This document shows, in pieces, positions 749-63,371 of a DNA stretch of 64,000 nucleotides. Below the pieces are notes generated by a model. That model saw only the letters and a program-made list of their open reading frames with translations. It was not told where the DNA came from and did not search any database. Each line of letters starts with the position of its first letter. The stretch's first letter is position 1. The DNA is from a virus, in the IMG/VR virus record IMGVR_UViG_3300000651_000003, positions 33,309 to 97,308 of that record; one strand, 5' to 3'. The position numbers were made by a program, and so were the translations under genes.

Positions 749-1060
749 ATGAAAGTACTGGAAGGCAGAGAACGCGAACTCAAAGAACACTTCGCAAACC
801 ACGCAGTACCGTTTCGAGTGGTCACCGCAGACGACGAGGAAAGTCTCATGTGCATGGACATGACTCAGATTCCTCACGCTTTGCGGTCTGAGTTCGACGA
901 GACTGGGTTGTTCGTAGGAACTACGGTCGATGAAACCGCCGCAGCCGTCGAAACCGCAGAGCCACAGGAAACTACAGTCGAACCTTTGTCTATTGATGAA
1001 GCAGTGGCGCAGACCATTGCTCAGAATCCCAGCACTGAAGCTCCGGCTTCCCAAGAATGA
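749..1060 (+). CDS. acidic hypothetical protein next to capsid
   Basis: AGGAGG RBS at ~737; carries VEPLSIDE motif. Confidence 0.6.
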   Translation: MKVLEGRERELKEHFANHAVPFRVVTADDEESLMCMDMTQIPHALRSEFDETGLFVGTTVDETAAAVETAEPQETTVEPLSIDEAVAQTIAQNPSTEAPASQE

Positions 1061-1323
1061 TAATGGGTTCTAGGCACACACATCGGGTTTTACGACCTTT
1101 CCCGGCAAGCGGCTCTGAGGTATTGGCTGCCGGCACTCTGGTGAATGCAAGTACTTGGCGTTACACTGACTTGTTGGTCGCGCAAGGGTACATAGAGGCT
1201 ATCAACGATGACGAGCCGGTGGAAGCCCTGAGTATCGAGCCTGAACAGAAACCCAAACCTTGGGAGTCCAACGTGGCAATTCCGTTAGAGGGAGAACAAC
1301 GACATCATGACGACGCCAAATAG
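1057..1323 (+). CDS. small head-region hypothetical protein
   Basis: ATGA overlap with upstream gene; carries DEPVEALSIE motif. Confidence 0.6.
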   Translation: MIMGSRHTHRVLRPFPASGSEVLAAGTLVNASTWRYTDLLVAQGYIEAINDDEPVEALSIEPEQKPKPWESNVAIPLEGEQRHHDDAK

Positions 1324-1702
1324 AGCAACAGGTGGAATGCTATCTGCAGGAGGGTTCTCTGCCAGAGACGGAGTCAGCGGTGGGTTCATTCCGGCTAGTC
1401 AAGTCATGGCCGCCGACGGAGCCATCACGATAAAGAACGGCGTTGTATTCATAACGAAGTCGTCAGCTGCGGCCATTACGTTGGCCGCTCCTATCTCAGG
1501 TACTGACGATTTCAAGACGTTGAAAATCCTTTCGGCCACTGCTCAGGCACATACCGTTACCAATGCTTCTCCCGGATTCAATGGTGGTGGTGCAGCCAGC
1601 GACGTCGGTACATTCGGAGCCGCAAAAGGCAACGGCTTTGTTGCGGTGGCATATCAAGGTACTTGGTATGTTCAGTCCAATGTGGGTGTCACTTTTGCAT
1701 AG
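1307..1702 (+). CDS. putative head decoration/head fibre protein
   Basis: Gly/Ala/Thr-rich beta protein (AAITLAAP...AQAHTVT...GTWYV) in head module. Confidence 0.55.
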   Translation: MTTPNRATGGMLSAGGFSARDGVSGGFIPASQVMAADGAITIKNGVVFITKSSAAAITLAAPISGTDDFKTLKILSATAQAHTVTNASPGFNGGGAASDVGTFGAAKGNGFVAVAYQGTWYVQSNVGVTFA

Positions 1703-1720
1703 TGACCGAGTCTTCGAAAA

Positions 1721-2179
1721 ATGGGATGGTCTTACGATTCATCGAAACTCGACGTACCGCTAAATCAAGTTCGCTTCTTGATTGGCGACACGATTGAAGG
1801 TGCCGCGTTAATTGAAGACGACGACGAAATCCAATTCTGCTTAACCCAGAAAAACAATAACATATATCTAGCTGGAGCCTTTGCACTAAGACGAGGCTCC
1901 GCTAGGCTTCTGCGCGAACTCAAGTTAATCGCTAATAAGGGCGGACTTGAGGATGATACTATGGCCCAGTCGCAGGAGTTGCTGAAGCGGGCCGCAGAGT
2001 TGGAGTCAGAAGCAGTCAAGGCTGGGGGTGTTTCGTTCTACTTTGGAGGTATTTCGAAGGCAGATGTTCAGACTCGCGAACAGGATGATGATCGGGTTGA
2101 CCCAGCTGTAACAGTTGACTCATTTGAACCGAACAGTGTTCCAGTTTCTGAGATTCCGGATACGATTTGGAGATGGTAA
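1721..2179 (+). CDS. head-tail adaptor (connector)
   Basis: N-terminal WSYD...QVRFLIGDT...DDEI pattern; position. Confidence 0.7.
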   Translation: MGWSYDSSKLDVPLNQVRFLIGDTIEGAALIEDDDEIQFCLTQKNNNIYLAGAFALRRGSARLLRELKLIANKGGLEDDTMAQSQELLKRAAELESEAVKAGGVSFYFGGISKADVQTREQDDDRVDPAVTVDSFEPNSVPVSEIPDTIWRW

Positions 2180-2183
2180 CTGA

Positions 2184-2612
2184 ATGTCTCTGCAATTTTC
2201 AGTAGCAGCGAAAAAGTTTGCGGCCCGGGCAGTGAGGACTATGCCGCGCAGACTCGTTCTACAGAAAATGCCCTCGGCCACTGACGGTCATGGCTATCCG
2301 CAGAGCACGTATGTTGACATTGATCCAACGCATCCTGTTCCGTGCCTGTTTACAATGAAGTCAGGGCACGAGATGGTGCTCAGCGGGGCTTCGAAAACAG
2401 TTACTCTATACAACTTCGAGATTCCGCAGCTGAATTATTACGACGGCATCTGGGCCAATGTTGATTTCTCCACTAAGTACCGAGTGCACCTGCTTCCAAA
2501 TAACGACCAAGATTTGGAAGATTTGTTGTTGCAAATTATCGGTGGTGGTGGAGACGACGACCCAATCCTTACGTTTCAGGCGGTGACTCTTGACGACTTG
2601 TTATCATCATGA
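2184..2612 (+). CDS. putative head closure protein
   Basis: Position after adaptor; TDGHG...VPC pattern. Confidence 0.5.
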   Translation: MSLQFSVAAKKFAARAVRTMPRRLVLQKMPSATDGHGYPQSTYVDIDPTHPVPCLFTMKSGHEMVLSGASKTVTLYNFEIPQLNYYDGIWANVDFSTKYRVHLLPNNDQDLEDLLLQIIGGGGDDDPILTFQAVTLDDLLSS

Positions 2613-3061
2613 CGGGCTGGGAACTAGGAGATGTAGATGCGCTCATTGAGTCAACACTGGCTAACGATAGCACGATACAGTCGTTGATGGGAGTCAGCCC
2701 CGCCCGGGTGGCTAATTACCGGGTGCCGTCGGATTTGTCATGGAAACTGCTGTACATTTATTTTTACTCGATACCCGGCAACGACATTCGCGTTCAGGGC
2801 AATGGTCGGGTGATGACAACCGTGGACTATGACATTGAAGTACGAACTACGGGCGCACCAACTGATAACTCGCGAGCAATAGTGGCTCGCATTGATGTTT
2901 TGATAGGGGCTATGAAAAGACAGCTAACAGCCAATAGCCAATGGGTTGTATGTGCTACTCCGCTCAAGCCGATTAACATTTTGCAGTCGGGTGAGAGTTC
3001 GGATGTCTTTTATGTTCGTCAGGGGCGCACATACGCCATTCAAGTAGTCCAAGGATTGTAA
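2609..3061 (+). CDS. putative tail terminator/completion protein
   Basis: Position before tail tube; size and alpha/beta pattern (ARIDVLI). Confidence 0.55.
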   Translation: MTGWELGDVDALIESTLANDSTIQSLMGVSPARVANYRVPSDLSWKLLYIYFYSIPGNDIRVQGNGRVMTTVDYDIEVRTTGAPTDNSRAIVARIDVLIGAMKRQLTANSQWVVCATPLKPINILQSGESSDVFYVRQGRTYAIQVVQGL

Positions 3062-3071
3062 AGGAGAACCT

Positions 3072-3275
3072 ATGAGATTTGACAGAGTTGAAGTGCAGGT
3101 GCGGCAAGGTGATGAAGGTCATCCGAAAGAAGTGCATATCCCGGTGCTGAGCGTGCCGGCAAAATCGAACTTTAAGTCTGGCACTTACACAGTGGTTATA
3201 GGTAGCGACGACCCGGGTGGCGGTGTGATCACTGGCGACGACCCGGGAGTGATCACTGGCGACGAACCCAAATAA
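3072..3275 (+). CDS. small hypothetical protein with VITGDDPG repeats
   Basis: AAGGAG RBS; 24-bp tandem unit GTGATCACTGGCGACGA(CCCGGGA). Confidence 0.55.
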   Translation: MRFDRVEVQVRQGDEGHPKEVHIPVLSVPAKSNFKSGTYTVVIGSDDPGGGVITGDDPGVITGDEPK

Positions 3276-3301
3276 CCGATAGATAAGCAAGGGAGAATAC
3301 A

Positions 3302-4336: not shown

Positions 4337-4391
4337 AAACACGAAAACGCTGAACGCGTAGCTCAGTGAGCGCGCCTAAGCAACGAACAAC

Positions 4392-4439
4392 AGAAGCTCG
4401 GCAGTGAAGACATTCTTTGCTGCCGGGTTTCTACTTTTT
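4392..4439 (+). terminator. intrinsic terminator after tail tube
   Basis: AGAAGCTCGGCAGTGAAG / CTTTGCTGCCGGGTTTCT stem followed by ACTTTTT. Confidence 0.65.
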
Positions 4440-4450
4440 GAGGAGGAAAA

Positions 4451-8378: not shown

Positions 8379-8379
8379 C

Positions 8380-34231: not shown

Positions 34232-35407
34232 CTAGTCAAGGCTAAGCGCTTCGGTAGGCTCGTCCTCGTCTCCCTTAAAGAATTTACGCTGAGAAACTAC
34301 GATCAATTTGCCCGCATCTTTCTTGATCGTATTGACTGCATCGAAAATGGTCTCGCGCAGAGTAGTGTCTTTGCGAACCTCTGCCGGGTCAACATTCTGC
34401 AAAATGTCTTTTGCTTTCAGACAAAACTTCTTAAGGTCGTTGTCCCCAGTCAGATCGCCGCCAGTCAAAAACATGTTGATGAATTCGACGTACTTCGTTA
34501 TCGACCCACCCATGAACCTCTTTGGCTTGCCCTTCTCGTCCGTGCCAAGCTGAGACAGCAAGTGGTCGTTCAACTCCTGAAATGCTATACGGGCTGCATC
34601 GCGAGCTTCCTGAGCAGCATTCGCGAAAAAGACACCGGCTTTCTCGGACTCCTCCTTGTATATCTCGCTGTCTAGGTCAGACAGCGCAGCTGCAACGTTG
34701 TAGTTGATCCATCGATACTCAACATCGTACTTGAGCCGGATGGTTGCGAACGGTGGGTAGTCAGCAGAGGTGAAAAACGGTCCGCGCTTAGTCTTTGCAT
34801 CCTTGACTACTGCATCCCACTTTTTGCCAAACAGAGTAATCAATTTCTCTCGGTCCTCGATGTACTGTTTGGCTGCATCGGTAATCATTTTCACCTCGGT
34901 GCGTCTCATCAAATACGCACCTTGGAATTTGAGTGGCGACGGAACAACATGGGCCTTGACATAGTTCGTAAATTGCTTGTCTCGTTTCGCAATTGCTTTG
35001 ATGAACTTGCGATCAATCAAGTCCTGCGAGACATGCACCATTGAAGGGTCAGGCTTATGGCCGTTCGAATCCTCCTCGAGGCCCGGCATCGCTCCAACCA
35101 CCTTCTTCGGAAACTCCTGCACGCCGATTTGGGTTTGGGCGTCGGATATCAGTTTCTTCATCTCTGGAGTCAGGCTCGCAATCTCGTCCTCGGACAATTT
35201 GCTGACCACTCGCATAAAGTGTGCTGAGTCAATCGACTTTTTGAAGCCCGGGGTGCCGATATGCAGCTCGAAGGTAGTGGTAAGGTCAACCAGCTTCTTA
35301 CCTGCTTCGGCTTTGTCGAAGCTGGGATCCTCCAAAGCCAGTGCTTCTATTTCTTCCTCCAACACTTCATCAAGCGTAGGTTTTGTTTTCACAGGTTTTT
35401 TGCTCAC
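34232..35407 (-). CDS. DUF3150-like protein associated with AAA+ cluster
   Basis: Helical; F...DYP...IR.KY pattern; last gene of Ycf46-like operon; ends TEALSLD. Confidence 0.55.
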   Translation of the reverse strand: MSKKPVKTKPTLDEVLEEEIEALALEDPSFDKAEAGKKLVDLTTTFELHIGTPGFKKSIDSAHFMRVVSKLSEDEIASLTPEMKKLISDAQTQIGVQEFPKKVVGAMPGLEEDSNGHKPDPSMVHVSQDLIDRKFIKAIAKRDKQFTNYVKAHVVPSPLKFQGAYLMRRTEVKMITDAAKQYIEDREKLITLFGKKWDAVVKDAKTKRGPFFTSADYPPFATIRLKYDVEYRWINYNVAAALSDLDSEIYKEESEKAGVFFANAAQEARDAARIAFQELNDHLLSQLGTDEKGKPKRFMGGSITKYVEFINMFLTGGDLTGDNDLKKFCLKAKDILQNVDPAEVRKDTTLRETIFDAVNTIKKDAGKLIVVSQRKFFKGDEDEPTEALSLD

Positions 35408-35655
35408 AGTACATTCTCCTTTATGAATTTGGTCTCGGCATCTAGTGCCTGTTGTCTAAAATCGAACGGGCCAAGCATTGGACCAGCCACTGGCGACATA
35501 TCCGCATACCACTTGTTGTCTGGCCCCGGTTCGACGTGGCTCGCACGTTTGGTCTCGGCATGACCGAGCTCCATCAAAAACGCTAGGTCGTCGTGGTAGA
35601 TGAATGACAGTACGCCATTCTCATCTGCGCTGATTAGAAACTCTTGTAGTGGCAC
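35404..35655 (-). CDS. small conserved protein of AAA+/DUF1257/DUF2997 cluster
   Basis: RASHVEP...WYADMSPV.GP.LGPF..R..AL.AE. Confidence 0.65.
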   Translation of the reverse strand: MPLQEFLISADENGVLSFIYHDDLAFLMELGHAETKRASHVEPGPDNKWYADMSPVAGPMLGPFDFRQQALDAETKFIKENVL

Positions 35656-35830
35656 GATTGAGTACCTCCCTCTCGTTGTATTCCGGAGTGGTCTCGGTCG
35701 ATGTGACCTTGCCGAGTTTTTGTTCTAAATCCGCAGTCAGGGCGCGACATGCTTTGCCTTTGACACCCTTGACCGAAATGACAGGATTGTCATTGTCATC
35801 GAAGTCCATTAGAATTTCCTGCAGTGCCAT
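35621..35830 (-). CDS. DUF2997 family protein
   Basis: V.GVKGKAC..LT..LE..LG.V.....T.EY. Confidence 0.75.
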   Translation of the reverse strand: MALQEILMDFDDNDNPVISVKGVKGKACRALTADLEQKLGKVTSTETTPEYNEREVLNRATTRVSNQRR

Positions 35831-36291
35831 TAGACGTTCCTCCATGCCCGCATCTGAGGTTTATTTGTTACCGGGTTAATCCTTCTTTCGGTTCTAAAGC
35901 CCTTCCGAGCTGCATCCCGCATACCTACCGCAAGGGCGTATTCTCTCCTGAGTAAGCCGGCGTCCTTGCCAATGGCGGCCTGTAATCCTTGACCGCCAGC
36001 CCAGAAGTCGTAGATCAGTACGTAGCCCGGGCCATTCGGGTTCTTGACCAGACCAACTTCATATGCGTCTGGGTTGCCTTTGACTCGGATTGCATGTTCG
36101 CACTTGCCATAATCCTTCGGGTCGATGCCATGTTTGTATGCGGCATCGTCGCCGTGATAATCATTGACCCACGACCCGAACCACTTGTAGGTCTTCTGCC
36201 CTCGGGCCAACTCGAGGCCGAGAGGCTTGCATGCTTGTTCGGCAGCATCTAAGTCCTCGAAAATTGTCTCTACCGCTGTGACGTGACTCAT
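35830..36291 (-). CDS. DUF1257 (Ycf35-like) protein
   Basis: MSHVTAVET...YEVGLV...Y.L.YD.W...L.REYA. Confidence 0.75.
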   Translation of the reverse strand: MSHVTAVETIFEDLDAAEQACKPLGLELARGQKTYKWFGSWVNDYHGDDAAYKHGIDPKDYGKCEHAIRVKGNPDAYEVGLVKNPNGPGYVLIYDFWAGGQGLQAAIGKDAGLLRREYALAVGMRDAARKGFRTERRINPVTNKPQMRAWRNV

Positions 36292-37817
36292 TGATCCTCC
36301 TTCATAATCTTGCGGCCAGTTGAAATGTTCGTACCCTTGGTAGGTCGAGCGTAGGGACCCGGGAAGCTGGCTGAGTTGTACTTACCAGCAGCTTCACCGC
36401 GAAGTCTATCCAGCCCCTCGCGATCGCTAACGGCCACCGGGATAATGTTGCGAGCTGCTTCGATTAACGTGACACTCTCTTCCCAAGCAGTCTGGAAGCA
36501 TGACTCGATTTCTGCTCCCGTCCAGTCGGTGCTGTCTACTTGGCCCCAGTCATGTAGGTCAACGTCTGGGTACTTCTTGGAGTAAATGTCAACGATGACT
36601 CGCTTCTCGTCTTCGTCAGGAATATCGAAATACCAGATGCCCTTTTTCATCCGGCGTTTCAGCTCGGGCTTGACTACGCGAATGTCGTTCGACGTGCAAA
36701 TGAAAAACGCGCCGGCTGGCCCGGCAATCGCCTTAATGACTTTGAAGATGTCGCGAATCTCGTTCTCGGCCTGACCATACAGCCCCTCGCCTACGGCCCC
36801 ACCAAGGTCAACTTTGAGAGTGATGCAGCCGCATTCGTTGGCTACGGCCTTGGCCGCTACGGACTTCGCGGCCCCCGGGGGTCCGACTAGTAGCATGCCT
36901 GTATACTCGTTGTCCTGCATCTCGCAGAGAATAACGCCAAGGCGGTCGCTGTCAGAAGCATTCGGGCCACCGACTCCTGCCATCGCCTTTTCAATCTCAT
37001 CAATCCAGACAATGAGTTTTGGTTTGCGCTTGCCGGCAATGATGCGATTCCAGCGGCGCTTGAATTCTTCGATACCGCCGATGCCTGAAAACTTCTGACC
37101 GCCTACCCAGACTGACAATCCCTTGGTCTGGGAAATCATTTGCTTCTTGAGATACCACATCTCGTCAATCTCAAGGACATCTTTCGGCATACACATAGCG
37201 GAAGTCTGTTCTGCTTCAAAACCTACCAAACCGCGCAGAGCACTGACTCCGCTCTCGAGGTCTACCTTGTTGAGTTTGACATCTGCGGCCTTGGCTACGT
37301 CGGTAATGATCTGGGCCAGTTGCTTCTCGTCTGGCAATGGTTCGTCAAGCAAAAGAATGTCGTGGGACAGTTCTGGCGGGAATTCGAAGTTGGGGCCGAG
37401 TAAGACCAACGTGCGGCCGCTGTCGCGATATGGAGTTCTCAGATTCCATACAGCTTGAATAAACGCAGCCCGGTCGCCGTACTCCCTTTGGAAGAACGCA
37501 TGAGCGTTGAGCATAAAGAGAATCGGGTTGACAGGTTTGTTGGTGTCTGCGTTGTATGGGAATTGATTGGCAACAACCAGAGAGTCTACTGGGTTGACTA
37601 CGTTGCTCGCCTCGGCTTTGTCAATAACGAGCTGCCCTGCGTCCGACCGGGGACGCATTCCCCTCACGACGTCCCACTGAATAATAGGAACGTCGGTGCC
37701 GTTTGAATTGACCATGGAACAGATGGTCTGCATGGTTAGTTCAGGGTCTAGTGTCTTAATCGCAATCAATGGCGTGCCGACCCTGCGAGCCGCCTTGAAG
37801 TGTTCTAGTAAATTCAT
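36288..37817 (-). CDS. Ycf46-like AAA+ ATPase with Walker B segment before Walker A
   Basis: WIDEIEK precedes GPPGAAKS; CTSN sensor 1; TGAEIE lid. Confidence 0.85.
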   Translation of the reverse strand: MNLLEHFKAARRVGTPLIAIKTLDPELTMQTICSMVNSNGTDVPIIQWDVVRGMRPRSDAGQLVIDKAEASNVVNPVDSLVVANQFPYNADTNKPVNPILFMLNAHAFFQREYGDRAAFIQAVWNLRTPYRDSGRTLVLLGPNFEFPPELSHDILLLDEPLPDEKQLAQIITDVAKAADVKLNKVDLESGVSALRGLVGFEAEQTSAMCMPKDVLEIDEMWYLKKQMISQTKGLSVWVGGQKFSGIGGIEEFKRRWNRIIAGKRKPKLIVWIDEIEKAMAGVGGPNASDSDRLGVILCEMQDNEYTGMLLVGPPGAAKSVAAKAVANECGCITLKVDLGGAVGEGLYGQAENEIRDIFKVIKAIAGPAGAFFICTSNDIRVVKPELKRRMKKGIWYFDIPDEDEKRVIVDIYSKKYPDVDLHDWGQVDSTDWTGAEIESCFQTAWEESVTLIEAARNIIPVAVSDREGLDRLRGEAAGKYNSASFPGPYARPTKGTNISTGRKIMKEDQ

Positions 37818-37845
37818 TTCTCTCCTTTCTTTGAACTGTAAACAT

Positions 37846-38493
37846 TTAGTCACAATCGCAAGACATTGACTCAAAATCGCTGACGATAGTCTCAACCAAA
37901 TCACTGTTGTCGGCCTCTTCAGCTTCGAACTCATGCTCGAACTCCTCGTGGCCCTTGGTGTGGCGATCATCGCCCTTTGCCATTGAGCACTTGCTACCGC
38001 TACCGTCGACTACGCCGCATTCGGCATCTTCATCCTCTGCGCCATCAGGCCAGTCAGCGTTGTCGATTGCCGAGTCAAGTTCGTCAATGAATGAGTCGAG
38101 CGCTTCAACCCGACCTTGCACTAACTCCCCATTCTGCCCGTTCTGAAATGACTCTGGCATGTTGTTGTAATTCTCGTCGAACTCATCCTTGAGAGACTCC
38201 GCATCATCTTTTAAAGACTCAAGGTTGGATTTAAAATCCTCGAACTCCATGTCTCTGCGAAAATCGTCGCAGTAGTCACCCAGTCTCTCGTTGAGTTCGT
38301 AAACTCGACCAATCTGGCCCTGAGTCAGTTCGCTGGCCCGGGGTGAGCAACCCGGAGCCATGCAGCGAAACTGTTTTGCCGAGTTGCGGAATTGCCACGA
38401 CTTATATTGACTGCCGGGCTGAATCTGAATCCCACAATGCCCACATTTGTACTCACCTCGAGTACTCTTAGTCTTGATAACTATTCTAGCCAT
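37846..38493 (-). CDS. acidic coiled-coil protein with N-terminal zinc finger
   Basis: CGHC; NMPESFQ motif; AAGGAGG RBS. Confidence 0.6.
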   Translation of the reverse strand: MARIVIKTKSTRGEYKCGHCGIQIQPGSQYKSWQFRNSAKQFRCMAPGCSPRASELTQGQIGRVYELNERLGDYCDDFRRDMEFEDFKSNLESLKDDAESLKDEFDENYNNMPESFQNGQNGELVQGRVEALDSFIDELDSAIDNADWPDGAEDEDAECGVVDGSGSKCSMAKGDDRHTKGHEEFEHEFEAEEADNSDLVETIVSDFESMSCDCD

Positions 38494-43144: not shown

Positions 43145-43548
43145 AGTTGACCCAACTAAGTCTAGACCTCGACGAGCAGCTCGACTCTATGCAGCGAGCT
43201 GCTCACGGGCCTAGACTTGGCATAATCTTTAACGCCCAGCCACCGACCGGGGACGAGCTGAAAGAAGATGGGATAGCGAAAGTATCCTCAAAAGAAGCCT
43301 CTCGTCACTACCGGAATGGACTAGTCGAAACACTGAAATGCTTCCCAGTAGGGTCTCGCATAACTTCAGAGCAACTAACAGGCATCTACGGTAGGCCGCC
43401 CGAAGGCGTCAGTGTTAATGCAGTTGGGGCCGCAATCAACTTTATGGCTAAGCGAGGAATGATTTGTAAAACAGGGCGCATGCTTAAACCCGGGCGCAAG
43501 GAACGTCATTCCAATTTAATACCTGAATGGGAGGTACGACACTACTAA
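43141..43548 (+). CDS. putative DNA-binding protein with N-terminal QLSLDL
   Basis: wHTH-like (NAVGAA...GMI.KTG); QLSLDL resembles hexameric clamp-binding motif. Confidence 0.5.
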   Translation: MKLTQLSLDLDEQLDSMQRAAHGPRLGIIFNAQPPTGDELKEDGIAKVSSKEASRHYRNGLVETLKCFPVGSRITSEQLTGIYGRPPEGVSVNAVGAAINFMAKRGMICKTGRMLKPGRKERHSNLIPEWEVRHY

Positions 43549-44675
43549 TGGAATTCGCTATCGCAAAATCTGTTCTTCAAGAAGAGATGGGCAAGCTGAC
43601 AGGAATAATCGAAAAGAAGCCAACTATTCCTATTCTCGGGTTCATCAAGGTCGAAACTACTGACGCTGGGCTGCGGCTGAGCGCCACAGACATGGAGTCA
43701 TGGATTTTCTCGGAAGTGTCCAGCAAGCAGTTAGCTGTCACTCAACCCGGAGTCATGATGATACCGGCAAAGCAAATGTCCGACTTAGTAAGGCTGGCCC
43801 CAGACGGCCCCATCAAAGTAACTCTTGACAACAACGGTTGGATTCGAGTGCTTGCGAAGAACTGCAACTTCCGCATTCCCTCTGTTGCTCCAGACGGCTT
43901 TCCTGACCCGCCATCGTGGGAACATGTTACGTGGCTAGAGTTGCCAAGCAAAACAGTCAAGACCATCTTGCCAATGGTAAAGAACATGATGGCTCAGGAC
44001 GACAGCCGGCTGAATCTTCGTGGCATCAAATTGGAAATAGTAGATGGGCAGCTGACTATGGTGGCCACCGATGGTCACCGCATAATCGTTGGTTCATCTC
44101 AGCTCGACGGCATGATGCTGGACGACATTACAGTTCTGCTGCCTGCTCAGGGAATCGACGAATTAGTGAAGTTGATTCCTGATGACGGAAACATCAGCAT
44201 CGCCTTCGACGACGACAATCTATTTTTCTCCTTGGGGACGAGAATCCTTACTACTCGGTTATTGGCTGTCAAGTTCCCGGGTTACAAGGCAGCATTCGGT
44301 AATATAAAGTATTGTGATCTGTCATGCTCATTCAAGGCCGATTACTTGAGTCAGGCAGTCAAGCGAGCTATGTTATGCGCGGACAGGGAGAAGGGTGATT
44401 CAGCCGCAATATCTCTGTTGTTTGAGTCCGGGAAGTTAAAACTGAATGCTGCGTCTGCCGAGTTGGGTGAAGCCAATAACATTCTAGAGAGCAACTTCAG
44501 CGGCGACGATCCATTCAAGGTCTATTTCAACGGGAAATATTTGTTGGACTTCCTTGACCCGGCCGGCTCCGAAACGGTGGGAATCCAATTCAAGGACACC
44601 AATAGCCAAGCATACTTAACGAGTGAACGAGATGGATGTTCATTCTTTTACTGCTGCATGCCAATGCGTGGATGA
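43548..44675 (+). CDS. dnaN: DNA polymerase III beta sliding clamp
   Basis: TIPILG, ATDME, VATDGHR, FP.Y, FN..YLLD, MPMR. Confidence 0.95.
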   Translation: MEFAIAKSVLQEEMGKLTGIIEKKPTIPILGFIKVETTDAGLRLSATDMESWIFSEVSSKQLAVTQPGVMMIPAKQMSDLVRLAPDGPIKVTLDNNGWIRVLAKNCNFRIPSVAPDGFPDPPSWEHVTWLELPSKTVKTILPMVKNMMAQDDSRLNLRGIKLEIVDGQLTMVATDGHRIIVGSSQLDGMMLDDITVLLPAQGIDELVKLIPDDGNISIAFDDDNLFFSLGTRILTTRLLAVKFPGYKAAFGNIKYCDLSCSFKADYLSQAVKRAMLCADREKGDSAAISLLFESGKLKLNAASAELGEANNILESNFSGDDPFKVYFNGKYLLDFLDPAGSETVGIQFKDTNSQAYLTSERDGCSFFYCCMPMRG

Positions 44676-45192: not shown

Positions 45193-47148
45193 ATGTATCA
45201 GCCCGCAATCATACTTGACGAGTACGAGGATAGTGCTACCAGATGGACTCCTCCTCGTCCTGAAGACTTGCCAACGCTGGAAGGCGTTAGTCGCATCTCA
45301 ATGGATACTGAGAATAGTGGCAAGAACGCCTTCGATGACTTCGTATGTGGAGTGTCGATTGGCTGGCGAGACCCCGAGAATCTTGCAGCGAAATCTCTCT
45401 ACGCTCCTGTTGGCCACATCGAAGGCAATATGGATCCTGAAATCGTCAAGATGTGGATGGAGTATGTTTTGCCGGGTAAGGAAATCGTTTTTGCAAATGG
45501 TAAGTACGATATTCAGATCATGCGCACCGGGCTGAAGAAAAAGTTTGGTATTGACCTCGAGGCTCTGGGTTGTAAAGTTCGTGATGTAGCATTCCCTGCA
45601 GCTCTGTTGGACGACAGCCCGTTTGCTGATTTAAGCCTTGACGCAATTGGCATTAAGTACGTTGGCAGAGGCAAGGAGAGATTCCCCGGGGACATTGACA
45701 AAATGGCTAGCTACCCGAGTTGGATGGCTGGGCCTTATGCCGAGGGTGACTCGTTGATCACTCTTGAAGCAGACGAGAACATGGAACCGTTCATCCGGCA
45801 AGAAGGTTTGGAAAATGTTCTTGAGTTGGAAAATAGTCTCATCTATGCTGTCTGTGAGATTGAGCGCAATGGCTGCCGGGTGCATCGACCAAAACTGGAG
45901 CAATGGCGCAGCGAGGTCAGGACTGAGTATGAGAAGATCCTACGAGAAATCTTTCAACTAACCGGTTTCCGGGTTGACCCCGGGACCGTCGACTCGATGA
46001 TGAAGCTGTTTAGTTTTCTTGGCCTTGAGCCACCGAAGAAAAAACCAAAGCGCAAATCCAAAGCAAAGGGTAAATCTAAGCATCAAGAGGAGGAGCCTGA
46101 AGATGAGGAAGAAAATAGCCAAAAACGCACCTTTGAGGTTGATGAGTTATTATCGTTTAATCACCCCATCTTCAATTTAGTTGTTGATGCCAGACGGCAG
46201 CAAAGTTTACTGTCGAGATTTCTAGATAAGTACTATGAAGCTCTTACGTGGGGGCACCAGAACGGCAATGATTTGTTAAGAGCGTCATTCCATCAATGCA
46301 AGAACAATTTGGAAGCGCTCAAAAAGAAAGAGAAGGCTAAGGGCACCGGATGGGGCCGCTTTAGTAGTAGTGGCGGAGGAGATCTCAAGAGTGGGTATTC
46401 GTTTAATGCTCAGCAAGTCATACGAGCAGACAAGCAGGAAGCAGAGCTGGGCGATGCTCACATAATTCGAGAATTGTTTATACCAGACGACGGCATGGAA
46501 TACTTCAGCGCAGATATGAAGCAGGTTGAATATAGAATCTATGCCGCATTGGCTGGAGCCAAGACCGTCATCAAGGCTTACCGAGAGGATGCAAATACTG
46601 ACTACCATGCTTTGCTACACGATCGTATCCGACCCTACAAACCACATATTCAGCGAACCATTGTTAAGAATGTCAGTTTCGCTTATGCGTACAACTCTAG
46701 TCCTCAGACGTTGGCAGCCACCGCAGGAGTCACAATTAAAGAGGCAGAAGAGATATATGAATTTTGTAAACAGCTAATGCCAGAGCGAGACGGGTTCATA
46801 AAGAAATGCGCTCATGATGCCGAGCATAAAGGATACGTGGCTACCATCATGGGAAGGCGGGCGCGGTTCAAGCCTAGCGATCCCTTTTACAGAGCGGTTA
46901 GTCGCGTAGTACAGGGCAGTGCAGCTGATATATTTAAGCTAGCCCTGAGAGACTTATACCGCGAGAGAAAAACGCTCGGCATACACAAACTACGACAGGT
47001 TGTGCACGACGAAATCGACGGAGATAAAGAGCCGGGAGAAATTTATACAAAAAGGATTCTCGATTTCCTTGACGAACAGAGGTTCAACCTATCCATACCG
47101 ATTCGCTGGGACCTACACGCTGGAGCCAACTGGAGGGACTGCAAATGA
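45193..47148 (+). CDS. polA: family A DNA polymerase with 3'-5' exonuclease
   Basis: Exo DTE, N..YD, Y...D; motif A DMKQVEYR, motif B R...KNVSF...Y, motif C HDE. Confidence 0.93.
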   Translation: MYQPAIILDEYEDSATRWTPPRPEDLPTLEGVSRISMDTENSGKNAFDDFVCGVSIGWRDPENLAAKSLYAPVGHIEGNMDPEIVKMWMEYVLPGKEIVFANGKYDIQIMRTGLKKKFGIDLEALGCKVRDVAFPAALLDDSPFADLSLDAIGIKYVGRGKERFPGDIDKMASYPSWMAGPYAEGDSLITLEADENMEPFIRQEGLENVLELENSLIYAVCEIERNGCRVHRPKLEQWRSEVRTEYEKILREIFQLTGFRVDPGTVDSMMKLFSFLGLEPPKKKPKRKSKAKGKSKHQEEEPEDEEENSQKRTFEVDELLSFNHPIFNLVVDARRQQSLLSRFLDKYYEALTWGHQNGNDLLRASFHQCKNNLEALKKKEKAKGTGWGRFSSSGGGDLKSGYSFNAQQVIRADKQEAELGDAHIIRELFIPDDGMEYFSADMKQVEYRIYAALAGAKTVIKAYREDANTDYHALLHDRIRPYKPHIQRTIVKNVSFAYAYNSSPQTLAATAGVTIKEAEEIYEFCKQLMPERDGFIKKCAHDAEHKGYVATIMGRRARFKPSDPFYRAVSRVVQGSAADIFKLALRDLYRERKTLGIHKLRQVVHDEIDGDKEPGEIYTKRILDFLDEQRFNLSIPIRWDLHAGANWRDCK

Positions 47149-49594: not shown

Positions 49595-50166
49595 ACCAAA
49601 AACCAGACATCGAGCACCAATACGACCTGTTAAAGATGTCGATAGCTGACACCTTGATTGCCCTCGGCCTCAATATTGAGTCTGAGGGGCTTAAACGAAC
49701 GCCGGCTCGCATAGCCAAGTTCTATCTTGAGTTCCTGCGACCCCCAGACTTCGAATTCACCGTATTCGACAATGATGGCAGCGACGAGATGGTAATCCAG
49801 AGTGACATAGAGTTTGCCAGTCTCTGCGAGCACCACGGCCTACCATTTATCGGCGCCGCAGCGATCGCATACATACCAGACGGTAAAATTGTAGGCTTGT
49901 CGAAGCTGGCTCGGTGCCTTGATACTTATGCTCGTAGGTTCCAAAATCAGGAACGCATTACCCGGCAAGTTGCTGATGCATTACAAGAGGCGTTGAATCC
50001 AAAAGGAGTCGCTGTTGTACTTAAGGCCCGGCACTTCTGCATCGAGATTCGCGGAGTGAGAAAGCGCGGTTCAATCACTACTACATCTTGTCTGACAGGA
50101 GTATTTAAAAACGACCCGGCTTGCCGCAATGAATTTCTATCACTAGCACGAGGAATGAGAATATGA
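49579..50166 (+). CDS. folE: GTP cyclohydrolase I
   Basis: TPAR, SLCEHH.LPF, VGLSKLAR, Q.QERIT, H.C...RGV. Confidence 0.96.
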   Translation: MADTINQKPDIEHQYDLLKMSIADTLIALGLNIESEGLKRTPARIAKFYLEFLRPPDFEFTVFDNDGSDEMVIQSDIEFASLCEHHGLPFIGAAAIAYIPDGKIVGLSKLARCLDTYARRFQNQERITRQVADALQEALNPKGVAVVLKARHFCIEIRGVRKRGSITTTSCLTGVFKNDPACRNEFLSLARGMRI

Positions 50167-50885
50167 GTACCCCAGAAACTGTGGCCCTAGAGCTTGACGA
50201 ACCAACTACCAACATCGACAAAATCCACCCGGAGTTAAGGCAGTTCGCCAAACCAATGGAGGACTTAATCCCTGACCCGGAGAACGCCAACAAGCACGAC
50301 GCCCGCAACCTGAAAATGATTGCCGAGAGTCTTATCCGGTTTGGTCAAGTAGTGTTGCTCAAGGTCAATCGAGAAACCAACTTCATCGAAAAAGGTAACG
50401 GCACCTACATGGCAGCCAAAATGCTTGGTTGGACTCAGCTTGCTGCAATATGGTCAGACTTAGATAGGACAGAAGCGATCGCATACGGTTTGATTGATAA
50501 TCGCTGTGGGCAGACATCTCGCCCCGACTATGCGCAGACAGGAAAGCACCTTAGGGAGTTGAAAGAGGCTGACTACGAGATGATGCAATTTTGGACTCCG
50601 GAAGAGGCGCTGCCACTCGTTAGAGGGGAGTTTGTCAAGCCGGAAATCAGTGACGAGAAGTTTGACTCAGGGTTGCAGCGTGGTAGGCCGATATCGAAAA
50701 TCTCAGCTAGCGAGCGCATAACTGTAGACCGAGCCATTGCGTTCGTCAGAACCAAGGACAAGCGGTACAAGACCGAAGGCTCGGCCCTTGACTTCATATG
50801 TGGCGAGTTCATGGCATATCATGTCAACGATCTTGACAACGAGACCGAGGACCAAATCGAGCTCGAAGCTCTGTCGTTAGAGTAA
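50163..50885 (+). CDS. ParB/Srx-like N-terminal domain protein
   Basis: L.PDP.NA..H...I..SL..FG...GNG...AA..LGW...DNR. Confidence 0.75.
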   Translation: MSTPETVALELDEPTTNIDKIHPELRQFAKPMEDLIPDPENANKHDARNLKMIAESLIRFGQVVLLKVNRETNFIEKGNGTYMAAKMLGWTQLAAIWSDLDRTEAIAYGLIDNRCGQTSRPDYAQTGKHLRELKEADYEMMQFWTPEEALPLVRGEFVKPEISDEKFDSGLQRGRPISKISASERITVDRAIAFVRTKDKRYKTEGSALDFICGEFMAYHVNDLDNETEDQIELEALSLE

Positions 50886-57947: not shown

Positions 57948-58424
57948 ATGAAGCGGTCAGGATTCAAAAAACTATCTTACGAGGATGCCCTTATAAAAGC
58001 AGAGGCTACCCGGGCAGGGCAGAGGGCGAGAGCAGTGGGGAAAGCCCGGGAAAACGCTCGTAAAAGAGTGACTTCTGGCCTGAGAAAGCGGTCACCCAAA
58101 GCACAGGCAAACCAAAGCAGAGAACTAGCATTCACCAAAGCTGTTAGGGAACGAGATAGGTGTATGTGCAGATGGTTCTACCCAGATGGTAGTCGCTGCA
58201 CCTATCAGGATCCTAACATTACCGTTCATCATATCAACGAGCGATCGCAACGTCCAGACGAAAAGTTTAATCCCGACAATGGTGCGTGTATTTGTCCGGA
58301 GCATCACGATTACATGCACCATACCGTAGCAGGCCGAGAGCGTGGGAGGGTTCTTGGCCTGCTTGGTGGCGAGACTTACGAAAAAGCAATGAAAAGGAAA
58401 CGAGATGGAAGCCCTGTCGCTTGA
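57948..58424 (+). CDS. HNH endonuclease
   Basis: RD...C...C...VHHI...DNG..IC..HH. Confidence 0.8.
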   Translation: MKRSGFKKLSYEDALIKAEATRAGQRARAVGKARENARKRVTSGLRKRSPKAQANQSRELAFTKAVRERDRCMCRWFYPDGSRCTYQDPNITVHHINERSQRPDEKFNPDNGACICPEHHDYMHHTVAGRERGRVLGLLGGETYEKAMKRKRDGSPVA

Positions 58425-58638
58425 TGACGACATTACTCCTTTGGAATTAGAACTGGAACCACAGCATGTTCCGAAAATGGAGTTGACTGTAAAGCTGTAC
58501 CCCTTTAGTAAATATATGAAGGTGCCAGACAGCGAACTACTCGGGATGACTGCTCATGGGTTTCAGGTTACTGCTGTCAACGATATTGTAGGGGTACATG
58601 GGTTAGAGAGTAGAACGATCATATTGAGGCAACTATGA
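58405..58638 (+). CDS. hypothetical protein starting MEALSLDDDITPLELE
   Basis: ORF track; AAGGA RBS; two copies of the peptide motif. Confidence 0.55.
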   Translation: MEALSLDDDITPLELELEPQHVPKMELTVKLYPFSKYMKVPDSELLGMTAHGFQVTAVNDIVGVHGLESRTIILRQL

Positions 58639-58916
58639 ACATAGCACTTGCACTCGACATATTTACCGTAGGTTGGATTCTCTTCGTCATTTGGTTTGTT
58701 GTCGAGGAGACTCTGGCTATCGTGAGCAAGACTCCCCATACCAACACTCTGTCGGCCCATCTCTGGGTTTGGTTTTCAATGCAAGGTAAGGGTAGATTCT
58801 GGTTATTGCGCCGGCTCTTTATGATCCTCACCTTGGTCTGGCTATTTGTGCATTTGACTTTGCACTGGTCAAGAGTATTTGGTTGGTTTCACTCGTCTTT
58901 CTGGAACAAATACTGA
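58635..58916 (+). CDS. small two-TM membrane protein
   Basis: Two hydrophobic helices; E..A...TLS..W pattern. Confidence 0.6.
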   Translation: MNIALALDIFTVGWILFVIWFVVEETLAIVSKTPHTNTLSAHLWVWFSMQGKGRFWLLRRLFMILTLVWLFVHLTLHWSRVFGWFHSSFWNKY

Positions 58917-59143
58917 TGGACCAGCCGGCTGTTTACATTTGCATCGAGTACGATCGCTTCAGTCGCAAGACTGGTAAGACTTGGATGGTGCTGGCTTTGG
59001 AAGACGACAAGTGGAATCCGGGAGATCTCATCAAGATCAATGGAAAGGATTACATACTATCGAATAGAACGGTTGACAGAAAGAAAGTTGTGCATTACAG
59101 AATGTACGTCGCGGAAGAAATAACAGCGTTACCTTTGGATTAA
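58916..59143 (+). CDS. hypothetical protein
   Basis: TGATG overlap; ends EEITALPLD. Confidence 0.55.
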   Translation: MDQPAVYICIEYDRFSRKTGKTWMVLALEDDKWNPGDLIKINGKDYILSNRTVDRKKVVHYRMYVAEEITALPLD

Positions 59144-60034: not shown

Positions 60035-60214
60035 AAATGCTTAGTGAACAAGAGAGAAGGTTAATAGTTGACTATGAAGTGGTAAGAGGTTGGATGTGGT
60101 GGGTAGCCTGTTCATTCTGGTTGCCAGATTGGGCCAAGGAGAAGATGGCCAATCGAGCTGCCAAGCGGGCAAGGCTGGGAATTGCCCGACTAGAATCAGT
60201 GGAGAGAAAAATCA

Positions 60215-60451
60215 ATGGGCAAATACGGAGAAGTTCGAACTCTTTACGCATACAACCGTGACTATGTACCGGATGTGGTCGCCTGCGTCAGGAGAATAAT
60301 GCGCGAGTATAGAAAGCCTATGTCTTGCCGGCAAATCGCTGAGGAGTTGGAAAAGATGGGAGTGTCTACATATAACAGCGAGCAAGCGGTATCATGCATC
60401 CTTCAGCGAATGATTAGACGTGGTGAAGTCAGAAGGGTAAAAAGAAGATGA
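60215..60451 (+). CDS. putative winged-helix protein
   Basis: MSCRQIAEEL...VSCILQRM..RG.V. Confidence 0.5.
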   Translation: MGKYGEVRTLYAYNRDYVPDVVACVRRIMREYRKPMSCRQIAEELEKMGVSTYNSEQAVSCILQRMIRRGEVRRVKRR

Positions 60452-60526
60452 GCGACGACCTAGTTAAGTCATTCCTGCAAGGTCTCTACTCAGGGACTCG
60501 TTAGAGTTAGAGATGGAGTATCGAAG

Positions 60527-60802
60527 ATGAGCAGGATGCAGTTACCCAGTATTTGGCTGCTGGGCTTTTTAATAAGGCATGGTATGTATTGGCCGTTGTC
60601 GGCCTTACCACCGGATGCACCAACTGGACTCACCATGTCAACCATGAGGGGATTGGAAAAGCGCGGTTACGCAAAAGAGACTGAGAATCATTGCTGGCAG
60701 GTAACGGAGAAAGGCCGAGAAGCATTCAAGTCAATGCCCAAGTTGAAATCAGTTATGAGTAAGCATGGAATTGTTTCACTGGTAATTGAGAATGATAGGT
60801 AA
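60527..60802 (+). CDS. putative winged-helix protein
   Basis: TMRGLEKRGY...W.VTEKGREA. Confidence 0.5.
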   Translation: MSRMQLPSIWLLGFLIRHGMYWPLSALPPDAPTGLTMSTMRGLEKRGYAKETENHCWQVTEKGREAFKSMPKLKSVMSKHGIVSLVIENDR

Positions 60803-62168
60803 GGTCGAAAAATATACGCAGGAGCAGCTTGAAGAGGAAGAAGCTTATAAGGCTCGTCCTCAATGGTTCAAGTTCTTCTACGGCGCTTGGCTGCTGAGCA
60901 CCAGCACATTGGATGATGACCAGAGAGGCTGGTACATGCAGCTACTATGCTATGCAGCCTCGGAAGGCGACCCACCGGGATACTTGGTAGATGACGAGGA
61001 CGAGTTAAAGGAGATTGCCGGCTTCAAGGAGTTGGATTCAGCGGTGCTATTTTTACTCGGCAAGGGAGTACACTTACCGGGTGACGTCTTGAATGACTGC
61101 ATTGATGCAAGACAAAGAAAGTGGAATAAGGTCATGAAGAAGTTCCGTCACAGCGAGAAGCATGGCGGGATGCTATATAATAAGCGTTTGCAGGCGGCCT
61201 TGGCTGAAGCCTATCAACTCAGGCGTAACGCAATTTTAGGTGGGAAAAAATTGCAAGAGGAGATACGAAACAAGCGCCAAAGTGTTGAAAATAAACTTAC
61301 TAGCGGCTCCAATGCGGACGCGGAACCGGAGCCATCATTAAAGAAGAACGAAAGCGGAGAGGTCGTAAATGCTAGAGAAGATTCTTCGTTAGAGGTAAAT
61401 GTTGACAATAAACTTGTTAGCAGCGGGCGCTCAGCAGGACCTAAGCAGGTGCTAAGCTCCCGCTCAGCTGGTGCTCAACGGGTGCTGAGCCATTATATTT
61501 CTGATCTCTCTTCTCTTGTTTTAGAGACTAACGAATATAGTAACTTCCAAGAAACGAATACCGAGAGTAAGGTGGGAAGGAATGATACGAAAACCCTAGA
61601 GGTTAGTGGGGACGAGGAGTCGGGTGAAGAGTTGACTGCTTTGGAGTTGGAACCTGAAACTGGTAAACGAGATGTTGGAAAATCTGTGACAGGCGAGATG
61701 AGAACTACTGTAACGGGGTTGAGAGTGGAGAAAACCCGGTCTCGACGTGATTGGCTGCCGGCAAACTTTTCGCTGGCTCCAGCACAGCGTGTCAAGCTTG
61801 TCACACTCATCACAGCAGAACTTAGATGCTCGAACGAAGAAGCTGAGCTGAAGAATCAAATCTGGTTCGATGAGTTCACTGAATACTGGTCGGCGCAAGC
61901 TGAAGTCGACAAAGAGTCAGGACGCACCGGTGCGCAGAAGGCAAACTGGTACCTGACCTATCGCAATCGAGTTGAAGAACGATGCTATCGCGAGAAGCAG
62001 AGGAGGGCAGGAAGAAATGTTCAGTCGAAACAAAAACCGTGGGAGTCTACCGCCGAACGCAATGCAAGGCTGGAGCGAGAAGCGCAAGAGTATACCGAAC
62101 AGCTACAAAGCGGTGGTGAGCGACATCATACAAACGATTCGACGATTGAGCCTCTTGAACCCAGTTGA
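60792..62168 (+). CDS. replication initiator (DUF1376/YdaU-like N-terminus)
   Basis: WFKFF..AWL..T..L....RG.Y..LL; C-terminal F.EYW...ANW..TY.N; internal iterons. Confidence 0.75.
   Translation: MIGKVEKYTQEQLEEEEAYKARPQWFKFFYGAWLLSTSTLDDDQRGWYMQLLCYAASEGDPPGYLVDDEDELKEIAGFKELDSAVLFLLGKGVHLPGDVLNDCIDARQRKWNKVMKKFRHSEKHGGMLYNKRLQAALAEAYQLRRNAILGGKKLQEEIRNKRQSVENKLTSGSNADAEPEPSLKKNESGEVVNAREDSSLEVNVDNKLVSSGRSAGPKQVLSSRSAGAQRVLSHYISDLSSLVLETNEYSNFQETNTESKVGRNDTKTLEVSGDEESGEELTALELEPETGKRDVGKSVTGEMRTTVTGLRVEKTRSRRDWLPANFSLAPAQRVKLVTLITAELRCSNEEAELKNQIWFDEFTEYWSAQAEVDKESGRTGAQKANWYLTYRNRVEERCYREKQRRAGRNVQSKQKPWESTAERNARLEREAQEYTEQLQSGGERHHTNDSTIEPLEPS
61428..61493 (+). repeat. six 11-bp iteron-like repeats (putative origin)
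   Basis: CGCTCAGCAGG ACCTAAGCAGG TGCTAAGCTCC CGCTCAGCTGG TGCTCAACGGG TGCTGAGCCAT followed by AT/pyrimidine-rich tract. Confidence 0.7.
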
Positions 62169-62451
62169 GGTGAAACAGCTCGACGGCGAAGTTAGCGACT
62201 GGTGTGAAATGTTGTACGGACACATCCCGGAGAACCAACTGCTGCCAGCTTTCGATGTAGCGATCCACACCGCACCCGGTGCCGGCAAGCAAGTGCGAGT
62301 CAGAGCATTCGAGCTCCTCGACGCATATCGCATTATCGCGGCTAGAAGTAATGCAGGTCCGTTGCTGCTCAACGTGCGCCCCTGTAGCTACTGCAAGATG
62401 TTTGAAAGTGACCCCACCGAGTTCCCGCCGTGCCCGTTCCACACAAAATGA
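62116..62451 (+). CDS. putative helicase loader/P-like protein
   Basis: Overlaps end of initiator gene; W..ML...IP...L..A pattern. Confidence 0.4.
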   Translation: MSDIIQTIRRLSLLNPVEVKQLDGEVSDWCEMLYGHIPENQLLPAFDVAIHTAPGAGKQVRVRAFELLDAYRIIAARSNAGPLLLNVRPCSYCKMFESDPTEFPPCPFHTK

Positions 62452-62615
62452 CCAACTGCCCATTTGGGCGTTATTTGGCTTGTTGGGCCTGAGTAAGGGG
62501 TAACCTAGGCCATCATAAGGGTTGCTGCATACAGACGGCTGGAAGGAGCTTTAACGCGCAGCAATTTGGGCATATTTGGGCTGGGTAGGCTGGCAGGCGG
62601 GCAAACTGGCCGACT

Positions 62616-62888
62616 CTAAAGACTAAGCGGCCCCAACGGCTCTTCATCTCCGGGCTGAGCATGGACGGCCTTCAGCTCCGTCTTCAGCCAATCAAGACTG
62701 TACTTCACAAGCTCATCGTATCGCATAGCTCCCCAGAGCGTGAGGTCTTGCGGATTCATTATCGCAAGCAGGGCATGCAATTGCTGAGTCATCGCATTGC
62801 GATAAGCTCGCTCGGTCTGCTGGCCCCGGGTGCTAAGCGGAGCCGGCCGATCCGCTGACACTAAATCTTTCAGTCGTGTATTACTCAT
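62616..62888 (-). CDS. hypothetical protein
   Basis: ATGA overlap; ends DEEPLGPLSL. Confidence 0.5.
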   Translation of the reverse strand: MSNTRLKDLVSADRPAPLSTRGQQTERAYRNAMTQQLHALLAIMNPQDLTLWGAMRYDELVKYSLDWLKTELKAVHAQPGDEEPLGPLSL

Positions 62889-63082
62889 GGCCTGAACCTC
62901 GAGTGGCAGACGCAGCCACACTTCATCGCTGTACAGTTGCTGTGATAGCCTTTGCCTTCTTCAGCCTTGCGGCAGGTAGCCGACATCGTAGTAAATCCTC
63001 GAGGAGTAGCAACATCTTTCATCCCTACTCTGTCCGAGGAGCCTCGTCTTGGTTTACCAGCACACATCTCAGCAAAGGACAT
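62885..63082 (-). CDS. small Cys-rich protein
   Basis: C...H..C...C.C.CH. Confidence 0.4.
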   Translation of the reverse strand: MSFAEMCAGKPRRGSSDRVGMKDVATPRGFTTMSATCRKAEEGKGYHSNCTAMKCGCVCHSRFRP

Positions 63083-63110
63083 GTTAGCTCGTCGTAGGCG
63101 GTCACTGTTT

Positions 63111-63371
63111 CTAGTCAAGGGAAAGTGCCTCCATTGGTTCGTCTTCTGTAGCGGAAAAAACTCCTTCTTTGTGAGTAGCAAGGTAATGCATTTCATTGCA
63201 GTAGCCAGTATAGTGGTCGTCGTCTGGGTGCTCAACGACCCAGTACGAATCATCACACCTGACCCCTCTATACTCATCACTATACTTGGGAGCCACGATC
63301 GCCTTGCAGAAAGGACATACGGCTTCTTGGCGCTCCTTGGGCGGTTCCCAGTCTTCGTCGAGAAAATCCAT
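63111..63371 (-). CDS. small zinc-binding protein ending DEPMEALSLD
   Basis: CPFC...H...C; peptide motif at C-terminus. Confidence 0.5.
   Translation of the reverse strand: MDFLDEDWEPPKERQEAVCPFCKAIVAPKYSDEYRGVRCDDSYWVVEHPDDDHYTGYCNEMHYLATHKEGVFSATEDEPMEALSLD

Follow-up and report, generated by a model that had tools for sequence, protein, structure and literature searches.

We report that about ten otherwise unrelated proteins of an uncultured phage bear an acidic E-A-L-S-L-D-like peptide, here called the tag, either at their termini or in linkers. The stretch under analysis, referred to as the window, comprises bases 33309-97308 (64,000 nucleotides) of the 97,308 bp genome IMGVR_UViG_3300000651_000003, and positions are given in window numbering unless marked as genome positions. 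The tag consensus is an acidic linker followed by [A/G/P]-L-x-[L/I] and then Asp/Glu or the end of the chain, and it is very likely a functional short linear docking motif that is carried on flexible tails and read by a hub. Our preferred reading, held with about even confidence, is that the tag would represent an unusual beta-clamp-binding motif lacking Gln and Phe, whose reader would be a beta clamp and likely the phage's own DnaN.

Occurrence and statistics of the tag

The gene set comprised about 122 proteins (29,067 amino acids, aa) obtained from heuristic gene calls with a codon-usage model, and a megablast search against the phage collection returned no matches, indicating a genome without a close relative there. 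Annotated replication genes included a DnaB-like helicase, a RecE-like exonuclease, a family-A DNA polymerase (PolA), a bacterial-type beta clamp (DnaN) and a classical-clade AAA+ ATPase, with no clamp loader recognised among the annotated phage proteins. A 7-deazaguanine cluster was also annotated (FolE, QueC/D/E-like and three TGT/DpdA-like genes) and has a ParB-like gene within it. Tag copies in the window, some of them in open reading frames (ORFs) of small size, were as follows.

34235..34264, minus strand: DEPTEALSLD-stop, C-terminus of the 391-aa DUF3150-like protein A (gene 34232-35407)
35330..35347, minus strand: EALALE (context EEIEALALE), N-terminal copy of protein A
63114..63131, minus strand: EALSLD-stop (DEPMEALSLD-stop), C-terminus of the small zinc-ribbon protein B (gene 63111-63422)
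50865..50882, plus strand: EALSLE-stop (IELEALSLE-stop), C-terminus of the ParB-like protein (gene 50163-50885)
50184..50198, plus strand: ALELD (ETVALELD), N-terminal copy of the ParB-like protein
59123..59140, plus strand: TALPLD-stop (EEITALPLD-stop), C-terminus of an 86-aa protein (gene 58883-59143; coding score 0.19 per codon)
62619..62630, minus strand: PLSL-stop (EEPLGPLSL-stop), C-terminus of a doubtful 101-aa ORF (62616-62921; coding score just 0.03 per codon)
58408..58452, plus strand: MEALSLDDDITPLELE, two tandem N-terminal copies (M-EALSLD-DDI-TPLELE) in a 77-aa protein (gene 58405-58638, with AGGA 10 nucleotides 5' of its ATG)
61635..61652, plus strand: TALELE (EELTALELE), internal, in a long linker of a 460-aa DUF1376-like protein (gene 60786-62168)
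1222..1239, plus strand: (DEPV)EALSIE, internal, in an 88-aa ORF (1057-1323)
980..997, plus strand: EPLSID (TTVEPLSIDE), internal, in a 103-aa ORF (749-1060)

All copies that the initial annotation had listed were recovered in place or immediately beside it, although the ORF at 62616-62921 is doubtful as a gene given its weak coding potential. The core motif [ET][AP]L[SEAP][LI][DE] matched 10 times in the coding sequence, in comparison to a mean of 0.17 matches expected from whole-protein shuffles and 0.16 when residues were shuffled within 20-residue blocks, a version that keeps the local acidic composition. The shuffle maximum was 2 and none of the 300 shuffles reached 10. A six-frame scan of the whole genome placed all 10 core matches in called gene frames, and none were found in the 165,549 residues of the remaining frames. 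Tails of the form [APG]L.[LI][DE]? closed six proteins against 0.21 expected when the last 20 residues of each protein were shuffled 500 times (no shuffle reached six), one of the six being encoded beyond the window (genome 6435-6902, minus strand; C-terminus DEEEALEL-stop). The frequency of the motif above composition-matched shuffles and its enrichment at chain ends, both of which the initial annotation had proposed to check, were therefore borne out.

Codon usage varied among the tag copies (Ser as AGC, TCC, TCG, AGT or TCT; Leu as CTT, CTG, TTA, TTG or CTA), which indicates selection on the peptide rather than on a DNA signal and agrees with the earlier claim that conservation lies at the protein level. 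All-against-all BLASTP of the carriers showed likeness confined to the tag stretches, and every tag copy was found either within an Asp/Glu-rich segment or closing the chain. An exact 5-mer multiplicity test was swamped by the most repeated 5-mers of the proteome, namely PTPTP (13), AATRF (10) and GPGSG/FGGPG (6-8). A degenerate DNA pattern for DEPxEALSLD-stop retrieved a single match from IMG/VR (L002), which lies inside a high-GC ORF (...EALTFDW...) and was rejected as chance, and a looser DNA version of the pattern had no matches in the same database.

These controls bear on the view that the tag has no common reader, and that the copies are either cis-acting acidic DNA-mimic tails folding back on the DNA-binding surface of their own protein or a convergent outcome of acidic-linker composition. 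DNA-binding proteins often have acidic autoinhibitory tails, and the tags do sit within acidic segments. However, the block shuffles retain this composition and gave 0.16 matches in comparison to the 10 seen, and the Leu-x-Leu core with its invariant Leu columns occurs on folds unrelated to one another, among them a zinc ribbon and those of small proteins without an evident DNA-binding domain, so that we consider this view quite improbable. An address for packaging into the capsid, comparable to the capsid-targeting sequences of T4, was suggested by the two internal copies, whose small ORFs (749-1060 and 1057-1323) follow shortly after the head genes. This appears extremely unlikely, as most carriers are located in the replication/modification region, the conserved terminal copies are on the ParB-like, DUF3150-like and zinc-ribbon proteins, and the core motif is absent from the first 33 kb where the head-region genes sit.

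A T4-type prohead-protease site (L/I-x-E) and a TonB box were also considered and rejected, as register, terminal position and cytoplasmic carriers do not fit either of them. In the packaging/head region outside the window, a 279-aa protein (genome 17974-18813, plus strand) ends in ...EPPVEPLQLEEEVVH, a near-terminal P-L-x-L-E copy; this protein is conserved in the relative G001 described below, where the ortholog lacks such an ending.

Conservation in three carrier families

Tag conservation was assessed in three families (the DUF3150-like protein A, the ParB-like protein and the zinc-ribbon protein B). Protein A had 19 homologs with 33-58% identity, nearly all of which close with x-[AGP]-L-[STEV]-[LI]-[DE] after an acidic linker. 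The C-terminal tag stands at or near the end in about 16 of 18 full-length homologs (45-58% identical), and three homologs with a linker insertion of about 40 residues still end in ALSID, ALSLD or GLSLD. The N-terminal site of protein A reads L-x-[LI]-x-[VI]-P-[DE] or L-x-I-P in orthologs. The DUF3150-like assignment came from an Atlas comparison, the sole pointer there, and a fold search against PDB gave no significant matches. Protein A and its alignment found no relatives in IMG/VR and GTDB genomes, and the sole tblastn match in the phage collection was the distant gp96 of phage Tunturi_3.

The ParB-like protein (PHROG ParB-like) had 18 orthologs that were 51-99% identical, and all 18 carry a C-terminal [AVS]-L-[SAD]-[LI]-[DEF] followed by 0-12 acidic residues, both Leu columns being invariant or near-invariant. 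One of these orthologs has SLSIF instead of ALSLD at the C-terminal site. Opposite the N-terminal ALELD, at least 10 of the 18 orthologs carry Q-[LIM]-x-[LI]-P and one carries QRLQF; Hda carries the comparable sequence QLSLPL. A metagenome scan with the ParB alignment returned two close contigs only (L004 and L005), both short and without further tagged genes. Distant homologs of protein B (34-46% identical) end in TPLEL-stop, PPLPL-stop or APLSLD-stop. Three unrelated families in related phages therefore keep the tag on linkers of changing length, as the initial annotation had anticipated for a linear motif, and a protein-level short linear motif under selection is what the comparison supports. 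Protein B itself has a zinc-ribbon-like CxxC...C core (...CPFC...YCNE.H...) and probably starts at an internal ATG at 63371 rather than at the listed ORF start; short homologs elsewhere also open with an acidic G-L-D segment.

AlphaFold2 models placed the C-terminal tag (residues 373-391) and the N-terminal copy (residues 16-26) of protein A in segments with a predicted local distance difference test (pLDDT) score below 50, as was the N-terminal tag of the ParB-like protein (residues 7-12), in which the C-terminal tag was modelled as a helix end with pLDDT of about 68. Tags in low-confidence termini, two of three modelled positions, are probably disordered according to these models. Variation in linker length with the tag kept and 0-12 acidic residues after it is consistent with a peptide-in-groove motif free to stand at either terminus or within the chain. 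Retention of the tag despite C-terminal extensions, together with its N-terminal and linker placement, also makes a reader that requires a free alpha-carboxylate unlikely. A test against the C-terminal tip of single-stranded DNA-binding protein (SSB) failed as well, as the tag has no terminal aromatic, allows C-terminal extensions and can be placed at the N-terminus.

The same placement bears on the tag as a degron that limits protein lifetime through a host protease or adaptor of the ClpXP, ClpAP, Lon, FtsH or Prc type, which is in keeping with the exposed and terminal tag positions. Known C-terminal degrons are non-polar or basic and are read jointly with the free carboxylate. The tag, however, is acidic and so does not match the ssrA/ClpX C-motif, up to 12 further residues follow it in orthologs, N-terminal and linker copies exist, and carriers such as the ParB-like protein are likely needed all through replication. 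A role in degradation is accordingly highly improbable.

The phage beta clamp and other candidate readers

The features that bear on the identity of the reader are listed below.

43527..44675, plus strand: phage beta sliding clamp DnaN, the proposed tag reader; all three Pfam DNA_pol3_beta domains match
43153..43170, plus strand: QLSLDL at the N-terminus of a 135-aa ORF (ORF135) that overlaps the dnaN start; fits Q-phi-x-L-x-L
45199..45216, plus strand: QPAIIL, a canonical-type motif at the PolA N-terminus (MYQPAIILDE; gene 45193-47148)
36288..37970, minus strand: classical-clade AAA+ ATPase, a rival reader; Pfam AAA and NCBIfam CDC48/PAN-like matches over residues 357-416 only

The phage-encoded DnaN and the adjoining ORF starting MKLTQLSLDL, both pointed out in the initial annotation, are present. 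The best solved relatives of phage DnaN are E. coli-type clamps (E about 2e-39), and it keeps the equivalents of E. coli R152, L155, T172, G174, H175, R176, P242, N320, Y323, M362, P363, M364 and R365, with the pocket substitutions V247A, R246A, V344N, S346Q, V360C and V361C. As listed, the dnaN ORF starts seven codons before the Met that aligns to residue 1 of E. coli beta (MEF...; region 43527-43550) and overlaps the preceding 135-aa ORF by 22 nucleotides; translation may in fact begin at the second ATG. ORF135 had no detectable homology to the ORF preceding dnaN in G001.

Canonical-type motifs occur in the same genome. The QPAIIL of phage PolA is near the consensus of the clamp-binding motif (CBM), as Gln and the final Ile-Leu are present with Pro at position 2. 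PolA orthologs (P0040-P0050) open with MxQPG[IV]xF, MQQTILF or MQQQSIMF, a conserved type in which Gln is followed by a hydrophobic residue and Phe. On the strength of these alignments, the family-A DNA polymerase of the clade bears a conserved canonical-type clamp-binding motif at its extreme N-terminus; E. coli Pol I is not known to have one. The motif kept in PolA orthologs, together with the QLSLDL start of ORF135, indicates that a clamp-motif system is in use in the clade.

A distant relative with its own DnaN was found via PolA. This genome, G001 (IMGVR_UViG_3300044652_000032; 95,182 bp with terminal repeats), shares 40% identity in PolA, 33% in DnaN and 44% in DnaB, and its PolA opens with MQLSLL. 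Six G001 proteins end in [LIM]F or [LIM]xF in comparison to 1.2 expected (0 of 500 shuffles), and two of those tails are Q-x-x-[LI]-F where 0.02 were expected. Tails of the Leu-x-Leu-acid type thus number six in the present phage and one in G001, whereas Leu-Phe tails number none here and six in G001. Phage DnaN has K249 and R381 at the positions matching E. coli R240 and R365, in comparison to E259 and D387 in G001. This charge swap in the clamp matches the acidic tails here and the neutral or basic tails in G001, a weak hint of co-adaptation that comes from two lineages only.

G001 84594-90420, between DnaN and PolA, holds a ParB-like gene, a Tet/JBP 2-oxoglutarate-Fe (2OG-Fe) dioxygenase ending in QPKLF, a P-loop nucleotide kinase ending in TLRLF and a 188-aa protein ending in QPEIF. 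ParB, Tet/JBP and kinase genes form the gene set of ParB-dependent thymidine hypermodification (PMC13229309), and the G001 region looks like such a cluster, its putative enzymes having clamp-type C-terminal tails. The C-terminal extension of ParB-dependent 5mYOX enzymes is reported to be essential (PMC13229309) and might include a clamp-type tail.

The clamp is favoured over other hubs on three grounds: the conserved N-terminal motif of PolA, the Q-type motifs that ParB orthologs have at the corresponding site, and the reciprocal tails in the DnaN-bearing relative. The Leu/Ile pair of the tag would fill hydrophobic positions in the partner-binding cleft, either as positions 2 and 4 of Q-L-x-L-F or as positions 4 and 6 of Q-phi-x-L-x-L, and acidic residues after the core, or the free carboxylate, would face the basic rim of the cleft. 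The rim is positive and most CBM flanks carry negative charge, Arg246 and Arg152 are contacted by the C-terminal Asp that follows the motif of Pol III alpha and by the Pol IV carboxylate, the delta subunit motif AMSLF has no Gln, and the last CBM position tolerates Leu or Ile (PMC11139829). The tag also agrees with CBMs in its flexible terminus or linker, its negative flanks or carboxylate, its conservation in client orthologs and the presence of a DnaN with a largely kept cleft. The reader would most probably be the phage DnaN dimer, with the host clamp as the alternative. Proteins with two copies (protein A, the ParB-like protein and the 77-aa protein) could occupy both clefts of the dimer as MuC of phage Mu does, and accessory DNA-transaction and modification proteins such as the ParB-like and DUF1376-like proteins would gather on newly replicated phage DNA.

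Several points weigh against the clamp as reader. EALSL[DE] copies fail the CBM sequence test (Q-phi-x-[L/M]-[F/L] or Q-phi-x-[L/M]-x-[F/L]), having no Gln and Asp/Glu at position 5, and the aligned register has Ala/Gly/Pro at position 1. In the hexameric register x-x-A-L-S-L, positions 4 and 6 fit and positions 1 and 2 do not, in comparison to the QLSLDL of ORF135 that fits the consensus, and choosing this register because it puts both Leu at critical positions is an after-the-fact choice. In E. coli and B. subtilis, binding suffers most from substitution by Ala at positions 1, 4 and 5 (bioRxiv 10.64898/2026.05.27.728225; PMC11139829), and phage DnaN is without visible remodelling of subsite I. 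The canonical PolA motif and the Leu-x-Leu-acid tag coexist, are each stable and rarely interconvert, with Phe in just one of about 40 C-terminal copies, so that they may serve different affinities, sites or readers. Tail types were compared with DnaN presence in three genomes only (this phage, G001 and Tunturi_3), and in the last of these one homology search, weak proof of absence, gave no DnaN candidate.

These points can also be interpreted as a private docking code with a different reader, such as a second clamp surface, the DnaB-like helicase, PolA, an SSB-type basic cleft of the oligonucleotide-binding (OB) fold or another phage or host protein, forming a network apart from the canonical motifs. 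The tag and the canonical Q...F motif share genomes with each conserved in its own form, the tag is without Gln1 and Phe5, and its strongly acidic context resembles tails that mimic single-stranded DNA; the basic cleft of RPA70N binds acidic amphipathic peptides. However, the annotated proteins include no candidate with a known peptide-binding domain, and both the Q-type motifs that swap in at the ParB ortholog position and the reciprocal G001 tails point to the clamp cleft, making a different reader rather unlikely. That the tag is a code orthogonal to the canonical clamp motif with a non-cleft reader (a second clamp surface or another hub), giving the clade two parallel peptide-addressing systems for replication and DNA-modification proteins, we entertain as a tentative possibility.

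Signalling to the phage AAA+ ATPase, resulting in unfolding, remodelling or delivery for degradation, was likewise considered. The ATPase belongs to the classical CDC48/PAN/FtsH-like clade, unfoldases engage flexible termini first, and its gene lies near the tagged protein A in a neighbourhood that recurs in Tunturiibacter phage Tunturi_3 (PP885686.1, gp96-gp103). In this genome, however, the ATPase and a protein-A homolog ending in LEGEEF are present, yet there is no tag, and tails of the Leu-x-Leu-acid and Leu-Phe types are both absent. The ATPase has no homolog in G001, a genome with both terminal tails and DnaN, and only about 60 of its residues match AAA models. The ATPase is therefore an improbable reader. 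Among the hubs that the initial annotation had put forward, the clamp is favoured, while the AAA+ protein and a degron read through its carboxylate by a host protease or adaptor are disfavoured.

Protein A and the ATPase (34232-37970, minus strand) are neighbours with small ORFs between them both here and in Tunturi_3 and form a conserved module. The Tunturi_3 protein-A homolog is labelled 'HNH endonuclease', a label without support in this analysis.

Implications and comparison with known systems

If clamp binding is true, the motif space of the beta clamp would extend to forms without Gln or an aromatic residue, which standard QL[SD]LF searches miss. The bacterial-type clamp of a phage would be the hub on which many accessory proteins converge, among them the ParB-like member of the 7-deazaguanine cluster, and DNA hypermodification would be coupled to the replication fork, as in DNMT1-PCNA and T4 alpha-glucosyltransferase-gp45. 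It would also provide a functional handle on the DUF3150-like, small zinc-ribbon and DUF1376-like families. Should the reader be other than the clamp, the tag would mark another hub of phage replication.

Bacterial beta-clamp-binding motifs (QL[SD]LF; PMC11139829) resemble the tag as short motifs on disordered termini or loops of many unrelated DNA-transaction proteins, with two aliphatic anchors at i and i+2 and with negative flanks or a free carboxylate, and this genome supplies both a conserved-pocket DnaN and canonical examples at the PolA and ORF135 N-termini. The tag differs in having Ala/Gly/Pro for Gln (as in delta AMSLF) and, in the aligned register, Asp/Glu for Phe/Leu, and in being far more acidic than known motifs. 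The SSB C-terminal tip (acidic with I-P-F) and the acidic C-tails of T7 gp2.5 and gp4 share an acidic flexible tail, a hydrophobic end and replisome contacts, but the SSB tail is borne by one protein for many readers, whereas the tag has many bearers, no terminal aromatic and no tie to the extreme C-terminus.

The initial annotation knew of no description of such a tag, a claim that does not hold for the general principle, as several phage proteins, DNA-modification enzymes among them, are already known to carry peptides that bind a clamp, and the T4 gp45 clients and MuC are the closest precedents. In T4, the phage clamp serves as a hub through terminal hydrophobic/acidic peptides of its clients (gp43 polymerase, gp33, gp55 and alpha-glucosyltransferase), which include non-replicative proteins and a DNA-modification enzyme, as the alpha-glucosyltransferase binds the gp45 clamp (PMC13216743). 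The T4 clamp is a PCNA-like trimer with its own loader, unlike the bacterial-type DnaN here, for which no loader was recognised, and the tag sequence is another one. MuC/Mor of phage Mu has one clamp motif at each end, both of which are required (PMC12867686), a layout shared by protein A and the ParB-like protein, although MuC presents near-consensus QHDLF and QPDLF to the host clamp in comparison to a divergent motif and a phage-encoded clamp here. The tag is most readily understood as a divergent variant of the clamp-binding motifs known from phages. What is new is an acidic divergent tag without Gln or Phe, its clade-wide conservation, its coexistence with a canonical polymerase motif and the finding that a ParB-like protein encoded in a deazaguanine cluster bears it.

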